In this document: positions 1 through 7,513 of the stretch, one piece after another
Layout: the number at the start of each line of letters is the position of its first letter
Position numbering within the stretch: position 1 is the stretch's first letter
DNA from: a virus
Taxonomy: Duplodnaviria > Heunggongvirae > Uroviricota > Caudoviricetes
DNA length: 7,513 nucleotides
IMG/VR virus record: IMGVR_UViG_2698536348_000008
Coordinates: 1 to 7,513 of that record
Direction: 5' to 3' (one strand)
Notes under the pieces: model-generated
What the model was told of the DNA's origin: nothing
The model's input: only the letters and a program-made list of their open reading frames with translations
The model's database searches: none
Translations under genes and position numbers: made by a program

Positions 1-496
1 CCCCCGACGTCATAACGGAACAGGGGATACGCCGAATGTTGATACAAATACAGAGATTACTACAGAGATTACTACAGAGATTACAACGGAGACTAAAAAC
101 ACTATTGGCGCATCCGCTGACGCGTCTGCACCAGCGCGTTCTGCCAGACAGGAATATTCACCGGAATTTGAACAGGCCTGGCAGGAATATCCCAAACGTG
201 CTGGTGGTAATTCAAAATCCGCCGCTTTTAAAGCCTGGAAAGCCCGAATCAGGGAAGGTGTGACACCCGAAACCATGCTCGACGGTGTGAAACGCTATGC
301 CGCCTGGGTGCGTGTCTCTGGAAATACCGGTACCCAGTTCGTGAAGCAGGCGTCGACGTTCTTTGGTCCGGATCGTCATTTCGAAGAATCCTGGGAAGTT
401 CCTGCGGTATCTGCAGCCAGACGCGAGGACCCGTACTTCAAAGCCAGTTACGACAACGTGGACTACAGCCAGATCCCGGAAGGATTCAGGGGGTGA
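1..496 (+). CDS. Phage replication protein, C-terminal portion with DnaT-like C-terminus; 5' end lies upstream of the window
   Basis: The frame beginning at nt 2 is open from the window edge to TGA 494-496 (the ORF track shows only the 260-496 part). The C-terminal ...DYSQIPEGFRG resembles the C-terminal end of E. coli primosomal protein DnaT as I recall it (memory, not a search). Position directly upstream of dam/rusA/Q fits a lambdoid replication module. Confidence 0.6.
   Translation, partial: PRRHNGTGDTPNVDTNTEITTEITTEITTETKNTIGASADASAPARSARQEYSPEFEQAWQEYPKRAGGNSKSAAFKAWKARIREGVTPETMLDGVKRYAAWVRVSGNTGTQFVKQASTFFGPDRHFEESWEVPAVSAARREDPYFKASYDNVDYSQIPEGFRG
49..84 (+). repeat. 12-bp tandem repeat, 3 copies (tacagagattac) plus a degenerate 4th unit, in frame within the replication gene, encoding (TEIT)3
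   Basis: Direct reading: units at 49-60, 61-72 and 73-84 are identical; 85-94 (aacggagact) is a decayed copy. Translation in the gene frame gives NTEITTEITTEITTETK. Confidence 0.85.
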
Positions 497-498
497 TC

Positions 499-591
499 AT
501 GAGTCTTTTGAATGAAGTTCAGAAATTCATTGAAGCCCATCCGGGGTGTACTTCCGGAGACATTGCGGATGCTTTTTACGTGGGGGCTTAA
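499..591 (+). CDS. Possible small ORF (30 aa, MSLLNEVQKFIEAHPGCTSGDIADAFYVGA) between the replication gene and dam; hypothetical
   Basis: ATG 499-501 lies 2 nt after the upstream stop and is preceded by a G-rich stretch (caggggg). Its stop TAA 589-591 shares a base with the dam ATG at 591 (TAATG). Below the ORF-track length cutoff; no homology recognised. Confidence 0.25.
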   Translation: MSLLNEVQKFIEAHPGCTSGDIADAFYVGA

Positions 592-1244
592 TGAGTAATA
601 AATATTGCCAGGCGCTGGTAGAACTGCGGAACAAACCAGCCCATGAACTGAAGGAAGTGGGCGATCAGTGGCGCACGCCGGACAACATTTTCTGGGGAAT
701 TAACACCTTGTTTGGTCCGTTTGTTCTGGATCTGTTCACTGACGGTGATAACGCCAAATGTGCCGCGTATTACACGGCGGAAGACAACGCGCTGGCGCAT
801 GACTGGTCAGAACGTCTTGCGGAGCTTAAAGGTGCTGCCTTTGGTAATCCCCCATACAGCCGCGCCAGTCAGCATGAGGGGCAATACATCACCGGCATGC
901 GTTACATCATGAAACATGCCAGTGCCATGCGTGATAAGGGCGGGCGCTATGTTTTCCTGATCAAAGCGGCCACCAGCGAAGTGTGGTGGCCGGAAGATGC
1001 AGATCATATTGCTTTTATTCGCGGGCGTATTGGTTTTGAACTGCCAGCCTGGTTTATCCCGAAAGACGAAAAGCAGGTGCCAACAGGTGCTTTCTTCGCT
1101 GGTGCTATTGCTGTTTTCGACAAGACCTGGAAGGGAGCGGCAATCAGCTACATCGGGCGCGATGAACTTGAGGCATGTGGTGAGGCGTTTCTGGCGCAGG
1201 TTCGCCAGCAGGCGGAAAAACTGGTCAGGGAGATGGCGGCATGA
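591..1244 (+). CDS. Phage DNA N6-adenine methyltransferase (Dam-family phage MTase)
   Basis: Translation contains the catalytic motif FGNPPYS (NPPY/DPPY motif IV) and an N-terminal WRTPDNIF segment typical of phage Dam-type MTases. ATG at 591 gives MSNKYCQ...; the ORF-track start at 546 is a GTG with no RBS, so 591 is preferred. Stop overlaps the next gene's start (ATGA at 1241-1244). Confidence 0.8.
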   Translation: MSNKYCQALVELRNKPAHELKEVGDQWRTPDNIFWGINTLFGPFVLDLFTDGDNAKCAAYYTAEDNALAHDWSERLAELKGAAFGNPPYSRASQHEGQYITGMRYIMKHASAMRDKGGRYVFLIKAATSEVWWPEDADHIAFIRGRIGFELPAWFIPKDEKQVPTGAFFAGAIAVFDKTWKGAAISYIGRDELEACGEAFLAQVRQQAEKLVREMAA

Positions 1245-1567
1245 CGACATTAACTCAATGCCAGCAGCAGGTGCTGGATATGCTGATTTCTTATCAGAAA
1301 GAACGTGGCTTCCCGCCAACCAATCAGGAGGTGGCAACCATGCTGGGATACCGTTCGGTGAATGCAGCGGTGGAGCATCTTCGCGCACTGGAGAAAAAAG
1401 GTGTCATCACGATAAAGCGTGGCGTGGCCCGGGGTATCACTCTTCATACCGCGGTGAAGGACGACGACAGCGAGGCGGTCGGGATTATCCGCGCCCTGCT
1501 TGCCGGTGAGGCAAACGCCAGGCTGCGTGCAGCCCACTGGTTACATGAGAGGGGCCTGAAAGTATGA
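1241..1567 (+). CDS. LexA N-terminal DNA-binding-domain-like protein (winged HTH only, no S24 peptidase domain), 108 aa
   Basis: LTQCQQQVLDMLISYQKERGFPPTNQEVATMLGYRSVNAAVEHLRALEKKGVITIKRGVARGITL aligns by eye almost residue-for-residue with E. coli LexA residues ~4-68 ([65 protein letters not shown], recalled from memory). No Ala-Gly cleavage site or Ser/Lys peptidase domain follows. Coupled to neighbours by ATGA overlaps at both ends. Confidence 0.75.
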   Translation: MTTLTQCQQQVLDMLISYQKERGFPPTNQEVATMLGYRSVNAAVEHLRALEKKGVITIKRGVARGITLHTAVKDDDSEAVGIIRALLAGEANARLRAAHWLHERGLKV

Positions 1568-1959
1568 AGCTAATACTGCCTTTTCCGCCCAGCGTGAACA
1601 CGTACTGGCGACACCCCAACAAAGGGGCGTTTGCTGGTAAGAGCCTGATAAGCGCGGCGGGGCGAAAATTCCAGAGCGCGGCGTGTGCAGCAATAGTTGA
1701 GCAGTTACGTCGTCTGCCGAAACCAACGTCGGCACCTGCTTCAGTGGAGATCGTGTTGTTTCCTCCGGATAACCGGATCCGCGATCTGGACAACTATAAC
1801 AAGGCGCTGTTTGACGCCCTGACCCACGCGGGTGTGTGGGAAGACGACAGACAGGTGAAAAGAATGCTGGTGGAGTGGGGACCGGTTATCCCGGAGGGGA
1901 AGGTCGAGATCACTATCAGTAAGTACGAAAAAGCGAGTTGCAAATTAGCAACTCGGTAA
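1564..1959 (+). CDS. rusA: RusA-family crossover junction endodeoxyribonuclease (Holliday junction resolvase)
   Basis: LPFPPSVNTYWRH ... RDLDNYNKALFDALTHAGVWEDDRQV matches the RusA pattern (LPWPPSNNRYYRH ... [26 protein letters not shown] in E. coli RusA, from memory). RBS GAGAGGGG precedes the ATG; typical nin-region position. Confidence 0.85.
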   Translation: MKLILPFPPSVNTYWRHPNKGAFAGKSLISAAGRKFQSAACAAIVEQLRRLPKPTSAPASVEIVLFPPDNRIRDLDNYNKALFDALTHAGVWEDDRQVKRMLVEWGPVIPEGKVEITISKYEKASCKLATR

Positions 1960-2004
1960 CGGAATTGAGCAACACCCTAAATTTGGGTATTACCTCGTTA
2001 AAGA

Positions 2005-2024
2005 TACTGTATTTATGAACAGTG
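2005..2024. promoter_or_regulatory. SOS-box-like (LexA operator-like) site TACTGTATTTATGAACAGTG
   Basis: Perfect CTGT-N8-ACAG core (CTGT 2007-2010, ACAG 2019-2022) with an AT-rich spacer; 16 of 20 positions match the TACTGTATATATATACAGTA consensus by hand. Lies in the 162-bp intergenic region upstream of the KilA-N gene. Confidence 0.4.
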
Positions 2025-2029
2025 TATCC

Positions 2030-2058
2030 TTGATAACTATTAAAAATCGCAGTAAGTT
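2030..2058 (+). promoter_or_regulatory. Candidate sigma70 promoter for the KilA-N/DUF968/Q genes (-35 TTGATA, 17-bp spacer, -10 TAAGTT)
   Basis: Hexamers read by eye: TTGATA at 2030-2035 and TAAGTT at 2053-2058. Weak -10; unverified. Confidence 0.2.
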
Positions 2059-2121
2059 CATCCTGCATCAACGAAAAGGGAGTGCAGTCCCGCTCGTGGA
2101 TAAAAATTTGTGGAGAAACCA

Positions 2122-2937
2122 ATGAATCAGTTGCTTGTAATTGATGGCGTTTCTGTGCGCCAGTACTTCGAATCTAACTACTGTCTTAACGACCTTCAGA
2201 AAGCTGCTCTTCTTGCCGCTGGTGAGAATCGCTCCTCCCGTTCGCTGGAAGTTCACGAGTTTATGCGTCGTCCTGAAACGAAGGCTCTTGTGGAATTATT
2301 GGAAGAAGAAACTACGGGAGATTCCCGTAGTATTCCTGTCATCACCATTCAGGGGCGCAATGGTGGGACGTATGTCTGTAAAGAGCTGGTCTATGCATAT
2401 GCAATGTGGATCAGCCCGGCATTCAGCTTAAAAGTGATACGTACTTTTGATGCGCTTCATAATTCATCACCAGAAGAAACCACATCCGACAAAATTAAAT
2501 CCGGGGTCATTCTGCTTGAATCAGCAGCAAAGACTCTAAATCTGTCAAACTCCTCGAAACTTGGTGCATACCAGAAATTATCAAAGGTAGCTGGTCTTCC
2601 TGAACTTATGCCGATCTATGCCATTGATGCACCTGCTGATGCGCCAGATGGTTCAAGCCGCCCTACGCTGTCGCTGAGTGCACTGCTGAAGCAGTATGGT
2701 ATCCGCCTGACGGCTAATCAGGCATATCACCAGATGGCGAAGCTGGGGATCGTTGAACAACGCGAACGATACAGCCGTACCGCGATTAACAACATCAAAA
2801 AATTCTGGTCGCTGACAGCGAAAGGTTGCATGTTCGGCAAGAACATCACCAGTCCCGCAAATCCGCGCGAGACGCAGCCGCATTTCTTCGAATCCCGATT
2901 CCCTGAGCTGTTAAAGCTGCTCGATACCGTTCATTGA
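2122..2937 (+). CDS. KilA-N domain protein (Roi-like phage DNA-binding protein)
   Basis: N-terminal region (GRNGGTYVCKELVYAYAMWISPAFSLKV) resembles KilA-N domains of phage Roi-type proteins found between nin genes and Q (family-level memory). ATG 2122 has RBS GGAG at 2112-2115; the ORF-track start at 2110 is a GTG inside that RBS. Confidence 0.7.
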   Translation: MNQLLVIDGVSVRQYFESNYCLNDLQKAALLAAGENRSSRSLEVHEFMRRPETKALVELLEEETTGDSRSIPVITIQGRNGGTYVCKELVYAYAMWISPAFSLKVIRTFDALHNSSPEETTSDKIKSGVILLESAAKTLNLSNSSKLGAYQKLSKVAGLPELMPIYAIDAPADAPDGSSRPTLSLSALLKQYGIRLTANQAYHQMAKLGIVEQRERYSRTAINNIKKFWSLTAKGCMFGKNITSPANPRETQPHFFESRFPELLKLLDTVH

Positions 2938-2938
2938 G

Positions 2939-3934
2939 GTGACCGTGAGAGCACTACTGACCCCTGAAATTGCCCCGCGTATGGGGATCGTATTGTTCAG
3001 ACCCGGTTCAGAGCTGATGCCCCTGTTTATGCAGGGGCGTGTCCTGCTGGAGCCTGAGCCGGAACGTTATTCATCTTTTGCCAGTGGTGCCGTTCCGGCA
3101 GCATCACAACCGCTGGCGGATGATCCTGCCGTTCGGGCCGTGTTCCGCAATGAGGCAGTGATCCGTCGTGCTGGTGGCGTGGAATGTCTTGAAAGCTGGT
3201 TACTTCGTGAAAAAGGTTGCCAGTGGCCTCATTCCGACTGGCACAGCGAGAACATGACCACAATGCGACACGCGCCGGGCGCAATCCGTCTGTGCTGGCA
3301 CTGCGATAACCAGCTGCGCGATCAGTTCACGGAACGGCTGGAATCAATGGCAACGGATAACTGTGCCCGCTGGGTGTTGTCTGTTGTGCGTCGGGATCTC
3401 GGTTTTGATGACAGTCACGTTGTGACAATGCCGGAACTGTGCTGGTGGCTGGTTCGTAATGATCTGGCGGATGCCTTACCGGAAAGTGCAGCCCGTAAGG
3501 CACTGAGATTACCGAAGCCTGTTGTGCCGTCTGTCACCCGGGAGAGTGACCTTGTGCCTTCGGTTCCGGCCACCAGCATCATCCAGAATAAAGCGAAAAA
3601 GGTGCTGGCGCTGAAAGTGGATCCGGAGTCGCCGGAGTCTTTTATGTTACGCCCAAAACGTCGCCGCTGGGTTAACGAAAAGTACACGCGCTGGGTTAAG
3701 ACGCAGCCGTGTGCATGTTGTGGAAAGCCTGCTGATGATCCCCACCACCTGATAGGCCACGGTCAGGGGGGAATGGGTACAAAAGCGCATGACCTCTTCG
3801 TGCTGCCTTTGTGCAGAAAGCATCACGACGAGCTGCATGCGGATACCGTGGCATTTGAAGAGAAGTATGGCTCCCAGCTGGAGCTGATATTTCGTTTTAT
3901 CGATCGTGCGCTGGCAATAGGCGTGCTGGCCTGA
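2939..3934 (+). CDS. DUF968-like prophage protein with C-terminal HNH-like Cys/His cluster
   Basis: C-terminal RWVNEKYTRWVKTQPCACCGKPADDPHHLIGHGQGGMGTKAHDLFVLPLCRKHHDELH resembles the conserved core of DUF968 proteins in E. coli prophages (e.g. YdfU-like; memory). Start is uncertain: GTG 2939 sits 1 nt after the upstream stop, and the first ATG is at 2981 with no clear RBS. Confidence 0.6.
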   Translation: MTVRALLTPEIAPRMGIVLFRPGSELMPLFMQGRVLLEPEPERYSSFASGAVPAASQPLADDPAVRAVFRNEAVIRRAGGVECLESWLLREKGCQWPHSDWHSENMTTMRHAPGAIRLCWHCDNQLRDQFTERLESMATDNCARWVLSVVRRDLGFDDSHVVTMPELCWWLVRNDLADALPESAARKALRLPKPVVPSVTRESDLVPSVPATSIIQNKAKKVLALKVDPESPESFMLRPKRRRWVNEKYTRWVKTQPCACCGKPADDPHHLIGHGQGGMGTKAHDLFVLPLCRKHHDELHADTVAFEEKYGSQLELIFRFIDRALAIGVLA

Positions 3935-3951
3935 TTTTGTGGAGAAAGTTG

Positions 3952-4323
3952 ATGCGTGATATTCAAATGGTTCTTGAACGTTGGGGGGCATGGGTGGCAA
4001 ATAATCACGAGGATGTGGAATGGTCATCTGTTGCTGCAGGTTTTAAGGGATTAATTCCTTCGAAAGTAAAATCCCGCCCGCAATGTAGCGATGACGATGG
4101 CCTGATCATTAGCTCTGCGATGACAGTTCTTAAGAAAAAGGAACCGTATCAATACGAATTACTGGAAATGTATTATGTGTATGGGGTTACATTACGGGTG
4201 TTGGGGGTAAAACTGGGGATATCACTTAATCAGGTTGTTATCAGACTGCAGAAAGCTGAAGGGTTTATTGACGGTTGTCTGGCAATGTTGGGGGTATCTT
4301 TAGAAATTGATTGTTACATATAG
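3952..4323 (+). CDS. Antitermination protein Q (QuuD-like short Q)
   Basis: MRDIQMVLERWGAWVANNHEDVEWSSVAAGFKGLIPSKVKSRPQC... closely resembles the DLP12 prophage Q homologue QuuD as I recall it. ATG 3952 has RBS GGAG at 3941-3944; the ORF-track start at 3937 is TTG. Confidence 0.75.
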   Translation: MRDIQMVLERWGAWVANNHEDVEWSSVAAGFKGLIPSKVKSRPQCSDDDGLIISSAMTVLKKKEPYQYELLEMYYVYGVTLRVLGVKLGISLNQVVIRLQKAEGFIDGCLAMLGVSLEIDCYI

Positions 4324-4398
4324 TAATAAATTCAATCAAAGTAAATAATCATATTTTATTATAACCTCCTGATGATACCTGTTCATTGGGAGGTTATT
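4324..4398 (+). promoter_or_regulatory. Q-distal intergenic region: candidate late-promoter (pR'/qut-like) position plus a leader hairpin that pairs with the RBS of the next ORF
   Basis: In lambdoid phages pR'/qut lie directly after Q (established); here 75 AT-rich bp follow the Q stop. ATAACCTCC (4361-4369) is the exact reverse complement of GGAGGTTAT (4389-4397), which contains the RBS of the ORF starting at 4399. Promoter hexamers were not confidently placed. Confidence 0.3.
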
Positions 4399-4632
4399 AT
4401 GGATAAAAATGTAGAGCATGTATTAGTTGATGCAATTGAAAATAAGCAATCTTTAACAGTCGTTTACTTAGGAGGGAGCCAGCCCGGAACATTAAGGAAT
4501 ATTTCTCCGATTAGTATAAATGGGGATAAATTGCGGGCAAGATGCCATAGTTCTGGAGCAGTAAAGGTTTTCAATCTTGGGAAAATACAGTTACCCAGTG
4601 ACTCCTGCGCGGTATCTATGCACTATGGAGAT

Positions 4633-4636
4633 TTAG
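4633..4636. repeat. IS5 target-site duplication, left copy (TTAG)
   Basis: TTAG immediately outside the IS5 left terminus; an identical TTAG flanks the right terminus. IS5 makes 4-bp duplications at YTAR-type targets (established). Confidence 0.85.
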
Positions 4637-4652
4637 GGAAGGTGCGAACAAG
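4637..4652. repeat. IS5 left terminal inverted repeat
   Basis: GGAAGGTGCGAACAAG; its partner at 5816-5831 reverse-complements to GGAAGGTGCGAATAAG. Confidence 0.9.
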
Positions 4653-4659
4653 TTCCTGA

Positions 4660-5685
<1,026 letters not shown>

Positions 5686-5815
5686 AAACTGGGGATAACG
5701 CCTTAAATGGCGAAGAAACGGTCTAAATAGGCTGATTCAAGGCATTTACGGGAGAAAAAATCGGCTCAAACATGAAGAAATGAAATGACTGAGTCAGCCG
5801 AGAAGAATTTCCCCG

Positions 5816-5831
5816 CTTATTCGCACCTTCC
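5816..5831. repeat. IS5 right terminal inverted repeat
   Basis: CTTATTCGCACCTTCC, inverted complement of the left terminus with one mismatch. Confidence 0.9.
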
Positions 5832-5835
5832 TTAG
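5832..5835. repeat. IS5 target-site duplication, right copy (TTAG)
   Basis: TTAG immediately outside the IS5 right terminus, identical to 4633-4636. Confidence 0.85.
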
Positions 5836-6344
5836 AAGTTAAAGCTTATGAGACGATGCAGAGCGTAAATGACAACTTTCATGCCCTTTATCCTGAAGGA
5901 CGATGGGGTGTTGATTTTAATGAGCATCGCTTTGCTTTATTTGATTTTTTTAAAAACGGGAAACGAAAAAAAACGGCATTTATGGCAATTGAGTTCAGGG
6001 AAAGAGATGAAGAGAAAATAATAACAGGTGTAACAATTGATATTGGTATATCTGGAACAGTGATTTCTGAGAAGTCCCGAATCCCAAAAAGACGACCATG
6101 GGTAGTGGTTGGTCCCGAACACGGAGAATACAGTACTTATTCAACTTTGGACAAGGCTGCTACAGCGTTTTTTGAGAGGCTTTCGTTGATAGCATCCGGC
6201 CTGGAAGATAATTGATTTTATGTTTGGTATTCAGAGTTCGCCGTGCTTAAGAAAGTCAAGATTCTAAAAATACTGAATGAGCTACTTGTGTTATAACAAA
6301 AATGCTATTAGTGTGTTAAGAGTGGTTACTTCGCCACACAACTT

Positions 6345-6369
6345 AAACCCGCCACTGAGCGGGTTTTTT
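6345..6369 (+). terminator. Rho-independent terminator (8-bp stem AAACCCGC/GCGGGTTT, 6-nt loop, T6 tract)
   Basis: Stem 6345-6352 pairs with 6359-6366 and is followed by TTTTTT 6364-6369. Lies about 130 bp after the cargo ORF stop. Confidence 0.6.
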
Positions 6370-6491
6370 GTACCTGTAAACTTGGTGCAGTACAGTAAAC
6401 ACGCTGGTGGTCGTGAATACTGACTTTTTATCTTGCTGGCTTTTTAGACAAGAGTTATTGGTATGTCATGTTAACCAGAAGGGAAAAAGAC

Positions 6492-6689
6492 ATGCTAAAA
6501 CAGCAAGATATGACCGAAACCGCCAGAGTGGTGTTTAATGAATTGAGCGTCACCGAACCGGCGACAGTCGGGGAGATTGCGCAGAATACTTACCTTTCAC
6601 GCGAACGCTGCCAGTTAATACTGACCCAGCTGGTTATGGCGGGTCTGGCAGACTATCAGTTCGGTTGTTACAGACGCCTTCCGCAGTGA
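6492..6689 (+). CDS. Small hypothetical protein (~65 aa) with HTH-like segment
   Basis: The ORF track gives 6468-6689. I prefer ATG 6492 because it is preceded by AAGGGA at a suitable spacing, whereas 6468 has no RBS. TVGEIAQNTYLSRERCQLILTQLVMAGL resembles a helix-turn-helix (pattern only). Ends inside a terminator-like hairpin. Confidence 0.4.
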   Translation: MLKQQDMTETARVVFNELSVTEPATVGEIAQNTYLSRERCQLILTQLVMAGLADYQFGCYRRLPQ

Positions 6690-6699
6690 AGGCTTTTTT
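6676..6699 (+). terminator. Candidate rho-independent terminator (6-bp stem GCCTTC/GAAGGC, 6-nt loop, T6 tract)
   Basis: GCCTTC 6676-6681 pairs with GAAGGC 6688-6693, followed by TTTTTT 6694-6699. The stop codon of the small ORF lies in the loop/stem. Confidence 0.45.
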
Positions 6700-6716
6700 A
6701 TTTGTGGTAAATGGGC

Positions 6717-6747
6717 GGCTGGTGGGTGTTAGGGGCACCCACCAGCC
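6717..6747. repeat. Perfect 12-bp inverted repeat (GGCTGGTGGGTG / CACCCACCAGCC) with 7-nt spacer; each arm contains a Chi octamer
   Basis: Left arm 6717-6728, right arm 6736-6747, exact reverse complements. GCTGGTGG is at 6718-6725 (+ strand) and its complement CCACCAGC at 6739-6746. Confidence 0.6.
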
Positions 6748-6839
6748 ATCTGCTCATGCGTTGGGTTCACAAGCAAACCTCAGGCCCACTGCTTTGCGCA
6801 AAAGCAGAATGAGCCTATCAGAGACAGGCTTAATGATCC

Positions 6840-7513
6840 ATGCTTAATACTGTAAAAATATCCAGTTGTGAGTTAATCAACGCCGACTGCCTGGAATTTA
6901 TCCGGTCGTTACCCGAAAATTCTGTTGACCTGATAGTCACGGACCCGCCGTACTTTAAAGTGAAGCCTGAGGGCTGGGATAACCAGTGGAAGGGCGACGA
7001 TGATTACCTGAAGTGGCTGGACCAGTGTCTGGCGCAGTTCTGGCGGGTGCTGAAACCTGCCGGAAGTCTTTACCTGTTCTGTGGTCATCGCCTGGCATCT
7101 GATATCGAAATCATGATGCGTGAACGCTTCAGTGTGCTGAACCATATTATCTGGGCGAAGCCGTCCGGACGCTGGAACGGATGCAACAAGGAAAGCCTGC
7201 GGGCGTATTTCCCCGCCACAGAGCGCATTCTGTTCGCGGAACATTATCAGGGGCCGTATCGTCCGAAAGATGCCGGGTATGAGGCGAAGGGCAGGGCACT
7301 GAAACAGCATGTGATGGCCCCGCTGATTGCTTACTTTCGTGATGCGCGCGCTGCCCTGGGGATAACGGCAAAACAGATTGCAGATGCCACAGGAAAGAAA
7401 AACATGGTGCCGCACTGGTTCAGTGCCAGTCAGTGGCAGCTACCGAACGAAAGCGATTATCTGAAATTACAGTCGCTGTTTGCCCGGGTGGCAGAAGAGA
7501 AACATCAGCGCGG
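6840..7513 (+). CDS. DNA methyltransferase (N6-adenine/N4-cytosine type, DPPY motif), 5' portion; continues past the window end
   Basis: Not in the ORF track (no stop in window). From ATG 6840 I translated 224 codons without a stop: MLNTVKISSCELINADCLEFIRSLPENSVDLIVTDPPYFKVKPEGWDNQWKGDDDYLKWLDQCLAQFWRVLKPAGSLYLFCGH... The TDPPY motif near the N-terminus and overall pattern resemble YhdJ/phage-type MTases. The minus-strand ORF 6909-7415 overlaps it and is rejected. Confidence 0.8.
   Translation, partial: MLNTVKISSCELINADCLEFIRSLPENSVDLIVTDPPYFKVKPEGWDNQWKGDDDYLKWLDQCLAQFWRVLKPAGSLYLFCGHRLASDIEIMMRERFSVLNHIIWAKPSGRWNGCNKESLRAYFPATERILFAEHYQGPYRPKDAGYEAKGRALKQHVMAPLIAYFRDARAALGITAKQIADATGKKNMVPHWFSASQWQLPNESDYLKLQSLFARVAEEKHQR

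Follow-up and report, generated by a model that had tools for sequence, protein, structure and literature searches.

The inverted repeat and its surroundings

We analyzed a stretch of 7,513 nucleotides (nt) from a genome of the Caudoviricetes (IMG/VR virus record IMGVR_UViG_2698536348_000008, positions 1 to 7,513), referred to below as the window, with the focus on a perfect inverted repeat at positions 6717-6747 that carries the Chi octamer on both strands. The window is a segment of a lambdoid prophage and encodes a Dam-type methylase, a LexA-like protein, RusA, a KilA-N protein, a DUF968/HNH protein and the antiterminator Q (3937-4323). Its right end falls within a gene for an N6-adenine DNA methyltransferase of the M.EcoGII family (Pfam N6_N4_Mtase), the 5' part of which, from the ATG at 6840 to 7513, is present on the + strand; this fragment shares 97.8% amino-acid identity with the methyltransferase of phage 1720a-02. 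The region shows 93-95% identity with phiP27, 1720a-02 and many Shiga toxin 2 (Stx2) phages, and 85% identity with SfV. In phiP27, the gene order continues with the methylase, transfer RNA (tRNA) genes, stx2e, the lysis genes and cos, and this synteny places cos about 5.9 kilobases (kb) rightward, on the same strand. Therefore, the + strand is the strand of late transcription, and cos lies to the right. We found no sigma-70-like promoter in 5600-7513, which fits read-through from the late promoter.

The repeat consists of the left arm GGCTGGTGGGTG (6717-6728), the loop TTAGGGG (6729-6735) and the right arm CACCCACCAGCC (6736-6747), as read on the + strand; the arms are complementary at all 12 positions and are separated by the 7 nt of the loop. 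The top-strand Chi octamer, GCTGGTGG, occupies 6718-6725, and the bottom-strand octamer, also exact, occupies 6739-6746. Upstream lies an open reading frame (ORF) for a winged-helix protein of 73 amino acids (6468-6689, + strand; TrmB-like, phrog_331), the stop codon of which overlaps an intrinsic-terminator-like hairpin (6676-6693) followed by the T-run TTTTTTATTT, the whole site extending over 6676-6700 on the + strand, 17 nt upstream of the repeat. Thus, coordinates and pairing agree with the preliminary description of this sequence, which had reported a perfect 12-base-pair inverted repeat with Chi on both strands, located between a terminator and the methyltransferase gene. The repeat resembles a Rho-independent terminator in being a G+C-rich intergenic stem-loop, but it was rightly set apart from classic terminators, given that no U-tract follows the stem: the sequence continues with ATCTGCTCATG, and a terminator scan picks 6676-6693, not the repeat. 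In most other genera, a T-rich run after a hairpin is found at the same upstream place, with a different sequence.

The repeat exceeds chance expectation. No other perfect hairpin in the window combines arms of 12 nt or more with a loop of 3-12 nt, and a perfect 12-nt arm was reached in only 2 of 300 dinucleotide-preserving shuffles. As RNA, positions 6712-6752 have a predicted folding energy of -29.9 kcal/mol (z = -5.2).

Conservation and covariation of the methyltransferase leader

Our first scan for homologues was keyed on the left arm itself, which forces conservation of that arm; the survey was repeated to remove this bias, using anchors on either side of the repeat and then a search with the methyltransferase protein. 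For the protein-based set, an alignment of six full-length methyltransferases served to fetch loci, with one genome per species. Via the methyltransferase protein, and without presence of the repeat being a condition, we obtained 41 distinct species-level leaders from Escherichia, Salmonella, Citrobacter, Klebsiella, Enterobacter, Kosakonia, Kluyvera, Mixta, Buttiauxella, Mangrovibacter, Erwinia, Serratia and others. These leaders have in common a block of about 145 nt that finishes at the start codon. In the window, the whole conserved motif spans 6705-6851 on the + strand, from approximately UGUGRAAAU to just past the methyltransferase start codon, and is matched with 139 bits (E ~1e-34) by R1, a covariance model built from the 41 methyltransferase-anchored leaders.

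For the 41 leaders, RNAalifold predicts three helices, P1, P2 and P3, of which P2 is the inverted repeat and P1 encloses P2 and P3. In window coordinates, all on the + strand, the 5' strand of P1 (UGGGC, 6712-6716) pairs with GCCCA (6784-6788), closing a three-way junction; the left and right arms of the repeat form the 5' and 3' arms of P2; and P3 (6751-6775) pairs UGCU..UG (6751-6758) with CA..AGCA (6768-6775). To this prediction we added P4, the hairpin CUGCUUU-GCGCA-AAAGCAG at 6789-6807. Unpaired nucleotides of the leader are conserved as well, namely AACC, GCUCAUG and UCACAAGC.

The fold was assessed on two alignments, a MAFFT alignment of the 41 leaders and a model-fitted alignment of 47 sequences (A5), and was compared with slid controls, in which the 3' partners were moved by 1-3 columns, and with 500 shuffles. 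On the MAFFT alignment, 96.0% of cells are paired, versus 27-46% in the slid controls, and both-side changes occur in 10 pairs and 35 cells, versus at most 4 pairs and at most 6 cells; none of the 500 shuffles matches these counts. The corresponding fractions on A5 are 96.9% versus 31-42%, with compensatory changes in 13 pairs and 49 cells. In P1, 99.6% of the A5 cells are paired and both-side changes are found in three pairs: locus L269 has replaced G-C by A-U, and the Aeromonas locus L306 has replaced U-A by G-C and G-C by U-A. The Aeromonas copy is found by R1 too (33 bits, E ~3e-6); it retains P1 through these two double changes, and P2 through double changes as well. In P2, compensatory changes are seen in six pairs on A5. 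The closing pair of P3 is CG in 23 sequences, AU in 10, UA in 6 and UG in 6 (A5), and internal mismatches of P3 have turned into Watson-Crick pairs in L289 and L118. In Serratia-type copies, P4 is replaced by GCUG..CAGC, with U-A changed to G-C in five sequences. Taken together, the compensatory changes show that the fold is conserved across Enterobacterales and into Aeromonas.

Departures from Watson-Crick pairing in P2 are mainly of one kind: read on the + strand, 33 cells are G.U and 11 are A.C, and this excess points to the + strand as the folded strand. A cmscan search of 5800-7513 against Rfam 15, with E up to 10, returned no family match beyond chance level; over the repeat, the only matches are to the Pseudomonas small RNA P26, with 24 and 15 bits versus a gathering score of 36. 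Searching the literature for the arm sequence gave unrelated papers only, and the leader RNA is apparently undescribed. Given the conserved and covarying fold, the G.U bias of the + strand and the lack of an Rfam match, we therefore identify the repeat with helix P2 of a structured RNA outside the curated library. Among the roles that had been considered for the repeat, the comparative data favor an RNA structure in the methyltransferase leader.

Two further pairings compete with P1. GCCCA (6784-6788) is also complementary to UGAGC (6810-6814), and this alternative helix shows compensatory change in three pairs, together with a conserved C.A mismatch. The 5' strand UGGGC can pair with GCUCA, a conserved sequence just after P2, in 97% of cells, with one-sided changes only. 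P1 and these alternative pairings, UGGGC:GCUCA and GCCCA:UGAGC, are mutually exclusive.

Evolution of the two arms and of the two Chi octamers

The exact 31-mer was found in 70 of the 314 loci fetched; therefore, it is a common allele and not a singleton. It is common in E. coli-type prophages, yet it is one allele among several. In the samples that were anchored upstream or downstream of the repeat, the left arm is almost invariant, its changes being rare singletons. The right arm is polymorphic: besides the perfect CACCCACCAGCC, its alleles include CACCTGCCAGCC (phiP27 and SfV), CACTCACCAGCC, CACCTGCC.., CACTCACC.., CACCTACC.. and CACTTACC.., and most other genera have a bulged 3' arm of 13 nt, CACCC(G/A/T)(A/G)CCAGCC, for example CACCCGACCAGCC. 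All common right-arm alleles pair as + strand RNA through G.U pairs or a one-base bulge, with energies of -25 to -30 kcal/mol. Loop variants among the homologues are TTAGCGG, TTGGTAG, TTGTAG and TTAGCG.

These differences affect the two octamers unequally. Among the 41 methyltransferase-anchored leaders, the + strand Chi is present in 31, in copies from Enterobacteriaceae, versus 3 with the - strand Chi, which is specific to the allele of the window and is missing in phiP27 and SfV. In Serratia-type copies, a hairpin is found at this position too, with stems that are unrelated in sequence and contain no Chi (GGCGGTTAGTGTG/CGCACTAACCGCC, GGCGATTAAGA/TCTTAATCACC, GGCGGAGAGGGTG/CACCCCGTCCGCC), and the Aeromonas-type copy keeps the hairpin with yet another stem sequence, also without Chi. 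The preliminary description had proposed to ask whether the 31-mer is conserved as a unit in other prophages, and the answer is divided: the perfect double-Chi form is degenerate in close homologues, whereas the hairpin as such is conserved and covarying. We suggest that the second, bottom-strand Chi is a by-product that appears where the 3' arm happens to be perfectly complementary, rather than part of a selected bidirectional site.

The top-strand octamer belongs to a general pattern. There are nine Chi octamers in the window, versus 0.3 expected: six on the + strand (200, 1866, 3170, 3441, 6403 and 6718) and three on the - strand (970, 3570 and 6739). Among the + strand octamers of phiP27, Chi ranks first in frequency, with 12 copies, and there are 5 on the - strand; the methyltransferase-anchored loci have 143 on the + strand and 33 on the - strand in 161 kb, and many of the latter stem from palindromes, including CCACCAGCTGGTGG. 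This 14-nt palindrome (codons HQLV) lies inside the methyltransferase gene of many homologues and consists of two overlapping back-to-back Chi octamers; it is found at 2193-2206 of locus L262, which is equivalent to about 7532-7545, some 19 nt past the end of the window.

Lambdoid phages without a Rec module have many top-strand Chi octamers, concentrated toward the right, at the end by which RecBCD enters once terminase has cut cos; RecBCD coming from an open end must meet Chi from its 3' side (Zheng et al. 2025, PMC12315714). Only the + strand copy in the repeat has the orientation that is active for RecBCD entering from the cos (right) end; the - strand copy is inactive for entry from that side. 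The Chi of the 5' arm fits the right-end top-strand pattern of PMC12315714. Compared with E. coli-type Chi, the RecBCD recombination hotspot (2013, PMC3784561), as it occurs in Chi-rich lambdoid phages, the left-arm site is alike in its exact octamer, its cos-active strand, its location between Q and cos, and the density and orientation bias of its surroundings, as judged for this prophage from a 7.5-kb window. It differs from an ordinary Chi in two respects: the octamer at 6718-6725 is part of a conserved RNA stem, in its 5' arm, which would put two constraints on the same bases, and in this allele it has a mirror Chi on the inactive strand.

Linkage to the methyltransferase gene

Every adenine is a target of M.EcoGII-type enzymes, which have found wide use as reagents in the laboratory. 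Their mis-expression harms the host; for the phage, they are presumed to provide blanket protection against restriction. To our knowledge, how prophages silence these enzymes has not been described. The enzyme of 1720a-02 is very similar to M.EcoGII, a non-specific adenine methylase that is not expressed in the lysogen and the constitutive expression of which is deleterious (Murray et al., PMC5778455).

We found the motif in 43 methyltransferase-anchored loci, directly before the start codon or, in Aeromonas, before a com-like ORF; it is missing from three methyltransferase homologues (L281, L293 and L308). Five distinct upstream contexts meet the motif at 6691-6709, and from there homology runs on into the methyltransferase gene with 67-82% identity. 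The winged-helix ORF occurs within 1.5 kb upstream in 26 of the 43 motif-bearing loci. Given the five upstream contexts and the presence of this ORF in only 26 of 43 loci, the leader travels with the methyltransferase gene.

In Aeromonas popoffii (L306, ~1330-1500) and in an unclassified gammaproteobacterial locus (L309, ~1360-1500; weak motif match, 24.6 bits), a short ORF is located between the motif and the methyltransferase gene. Its product has paired CxxC motifs (..RCGNCSRKL..KCPRCK..) and resembles the Com zinc finger of phage Mu, which may be taken as a hint of translational regulation in this methylase family. The window itself contains two distinct adenine methyltransferase genes, the Dam-type gene (PF05869) at 546-1244 in the early-right region and the M.EcoGII-type gene at 6840-7513 at the head of the late region.

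Interpretation and alternative explanations

We consider it probable that the repeat is a stem of a cis-acting RNA leader and that its 5' arm doubles as one Chi site. The inverted repeat would then be the DNA image of helix P2 within a structured leader of about 145 nt, in which P1 closes the P2/P3 junction and is followed by P4. Such a leader would be transcribed on the + strand as part of the lambdoid late operon, right after the terminator and right before the methyltransferase gene, and would act in cis on the methyltransferase message, at the level of translation initiation, stability or read-through, so that a harmful promiscuous enzyme could be held off except in lytic growth. We infer this cis-regulatory role from the position of the leader, its conservation and the known harmfulness of the enzyme. 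A possible switch is the pairing of GCCCA with either the upstream UGGGC or the downstream UGAGC, in mutually exclusive helices. In Enterobacteriaceae, the G-rich 5' arm of P2 additionally spells a top-strand Chi, one of many between Q and cos, which presumably make RecBCD that has entered at cos change from degrading DNA to recombination. A further-reaching idea, which we put forward only tentatively, is that the leader represents an undescribed class of regulatory RNA, riboswitch-like or protein-binding, that switches between three-way-junction and two-hairpin folds and gates the M.EcoGII-type methylase at the head of the late operon in many Enterobacterales prophages, including Stx phages, where it lies just upstream of stx, with one stem recoded in Enterobacteriaceae as an active Chi.

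Several points weigh against this interpretation. P1 rests on three compensatory events, each in a single sequence, and the two alternative pairings fit about equally, which leaves the three-way junction tentative. Immediately ahead of the start codon, a candidate helix P5 (AUCAG/CUGAU) is paired in 85% of cells with almost no covariation; in the predicted structure, the start-codon region is not clearly sequestered, and neither a ligand nor an expression platform (a terminator or a sequestered Shine-Dalgarno sequence) was identified in the leader. What points to RNA is the combination of covariation, G.U bias and gene orientation, and the regulatory output that we ascribe to the leader is a guess. 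It should also be noted that the sequences are related, so that the shuffle controls overstate significance, and that the model-fitted alignment A5 leans to the model; the MAFFT counts already show the effect. As to Chi, transitions break pairs in the G/U-rich 5' arm and give wobbles in the C/A-rich 3' arm, and pairing alone would therefore keep the 5' arm invariant and let the 3' arm vary. Hence this asymmetry gives no independent proof of selection for Chi, which in the 5' arm is inseparable from selection for pairing.

Other explanations of the repeat differ in how they account for the same alignments. The closest to the leader interpretation is a stand-alone hairpin for RNA stability or processing, which would shield the methyltransferase message as a 5' stem-loop once RNase E has cut in the AU-rich spacer, or would block 3' exonucleases on read-through transcripts, with the rest of the leader having no role. 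The hairpin is indeed very stable (-26 to -30 kcal/mol) and sits just after a U/A-rich single-stranded stretch, and in S88/STEC1575-type phages it is kept without the rest of the motif, before a different downstream gene. However, P1, P3 and P4 covary and are conserved along with P2, and the truncated copies resemble recombination remnants, with a degenerate right arm or, in the PhiR5_1 type, the left arm only; we regard this explanation as unlikely. The same nesting of the repeat within covarying P1 and P3 would be senseless for a DNA operator, bound either by the upstream winged-helix protein or by some other dimeric regulator of the methyltransferase gene. Palindromic operators too can change both arms together, and the winged-helix ORF ends 28 nt upstream of the repeat and co-occurs with the motif as counted above, but 17 of the 43 motif-bearing loci are without this ORF within 1.5 kb upstream, although those genomes may have a copy elsewhere. 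Moreover, the half-sites are unequal, the left one being near-invariant and the right one having substitutions, one-base central insertions are tolerated in most genera, and the departures are mainly of the + strand G.U type, 33 to 11. A protein-binding palindrome, which the preliminary description had listed among the candidate roles, is thus disfavored, and we judge it quite improbable.

A bidirectional Chi element, that is, a palindrome selected so that RecBCD arriving from either side meets an active Chi, with DNA protected on both sides and a two-way hotspot as the result, would explain why both octamers are exact in the window and why the perfect 31-mer is so common, and it would be in line with the general selection for Chi in this phage family (PMC12315714) and with the second back-to-back palindrome, CCACCAGCTGGTGG, in the methyltransferase gene of many homologues. 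The distribution of the octamers does not agree with it: the - strand Chi is retained in 3 of 41 homologues, as opposed to 31 of 41 for the + strand Chi, and is missing even in phiP27 and SfV; - strand Chi octamers are disfavored generally (33 versus 143); and the Serratia- and Aeromonas-type hairpins persist without any Chi. The variation by wobble pairs and bulges fits RNA pairing, not conservation of an octamer, and the idea of a bidirectional Chi unit is not supported; we give it very little credence. Even less plausible is a leader peptide or upstream ORF, either from the ATG at 6711 (MGGWWV..., with the Trp-Trp codons corresponding to the Chi octamer) or from the ATG at 6756, a short ORF coupled to the methyltransferase start. 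Each candidate ATG, at 6711 or within GCTCATG, is strongly conserved, and in some genera the second ORF, as read by eye, finishes in an ATGA overlap with the methyltransferase start. Neither ATG has a Shine-Dalgarno sequence, however, and the one at 6711 is 6 nt from a stem of -30 kcal/mol. Both ORFs were rejected on their reading frames: in most genera, the loop TTGTAG introduces a stop at codon 8 of MGGWWV..., and the spacer after GCTCATG is 7 or 8 nt long, so that the frame is not conserved, with the ORFs of the window and SfV stopping about 28 nt before the methyltransferase ATG. Finally, a chance or neutral palindrome without function would have to rely on the two shuffles among 300 that did reach a perfect 12-nt arm, and conservation of the hairpin across genera with compensatory changes makes the probability of this explanation practically negligible.

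Comparison with known regulatory systems

Phage DNA-modification genes with structured cis-regulatory 5' leaders are known, for example the translation-inhibition stem in the com-mom mRNA of phage Mu. As in Mu com-mom, a folded RNA would be placed right before a DNA-modification gene of the late operon that is harmful if expressed at the wrong time, and in the distant copies L306 and L309 a zinc-finger ORF like Com separates the motif from the methyltransferase gene. Unlike Mu com-mom, the leader has no similarity to it in sequence or structure, there is no Com gene in the window, and the predicted fold has several helices with a possible three-way junction. The leader also shares features with riboswitch-like and orphan motifs of Rfam: a multi-helix junction, conserved unpaired nucleotides, covarying stems, candidate exclusive helices, and a fixed position upstream of one gene family. 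It differs from the catalogued motifs in that the leader region matches no Rfam 15 family at E up to 10.

The conserved, covarying leader is a concrete and testable candidate for the control of M.EcoGII-type enzymes, and in Stx phages it sits between the late promoter and the stx genes. For the study of Chi, this case indicates that a Chi octamer can ride inside an RNA structural element, and that a palindromic double Chi can arise from pairing, or from codon choice as in CCACCAGCTGGTGG, which calls for caution before such palindromes are read as designed bidirectional hotspots.

Junctions and mosaicism at the element

Module-boundary (linker) sequences are a known component of mosaic lambdoid phage genomes and of the modular theory. 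Like such linkers, the element is a place where homology between phages starts or stops (6691-6709, 6726, 6729 and 6763); a causal role of Chi in these junctions is at most suggested. In PhiR5_1-type phages, homology covers the upstream module and the left arm and is lost at 6729. These phages are without the whole cassette, and their junction matches a deletion from the left-arm Chi to a second top-strand Chi about 2 kb downstream (GTGCTGGTGGCGGGTGTGGTGGTTG), with the crossover in GGGTGT immediately 3' of Chi. In locus L007, this second Chi, GTGCTGGTGGCGGGKGTGGTGGTTG, comes after the methylase, a pair of tRNA genes and a cargo ORF (~6853-6880); the matching position in the PhiR5_1 locus L002 is ~3263-3300. 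Over the rest of the window, the best matches (97.6%) are S88/STEC1575-type prophages; these depart from it at 6726 or 6763 and have another downstream gene.

The junctions at the Chi arm are suggestive of Chi-associated exchange, although each type of downstream junction may be one inherited event, and breakpoints are at least as frequent near the terminator at 6349-6369. They constitute a small natural dataset on whether Chi shapes phage mosaicism. Two unusual arrangements were seen: the viral contig L069 has the block of terminator and left arm twice, at 404-421 and 3390-3407 (- strand), 3 kb apart, and L183 is a hybrid with a right arm of the STEC1575 type and, 20 nt on, a second partial right arm, TCACCAGCC. 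Both suggest recombination within the element.

Other features of the window

An AT-rich stretch in 6215-6370 is followed by a strong terminator, CCCGCCACTGAGCGGGTTTTTTG, at about 6349-6369. At this terminator, many types of phages gain or lose homology to the window: 60 unique segments begin at 6343-6348. The region 6215-6370 could be that of the late promoter, a short leader RNA and tR'; Rfam matches there are sub-threshold only.

A copy of IS5 at 4637-5831 (transposase ORF 4705-5685; terminal repeats GGAAGGTGCGAA..) is inserted just downstream of Q and is flanked by the target duplication TTAG (4633-4636 and 5832-5835). It splits a WYL-type gene into the ORFs 4400-4636 and 5856-6215; the 3' half matches positions 87-205 of phrog_8498, a gene with a WYL-domain annotation in E. 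coli S88. Those E. coli genomes that match best do not have the insertion. Positions 37-95, at the left edge of the window, contain four tandem copies of the 12-nt unit TACAGAGATTAC, which may be an iteron-like or a coding repeat.

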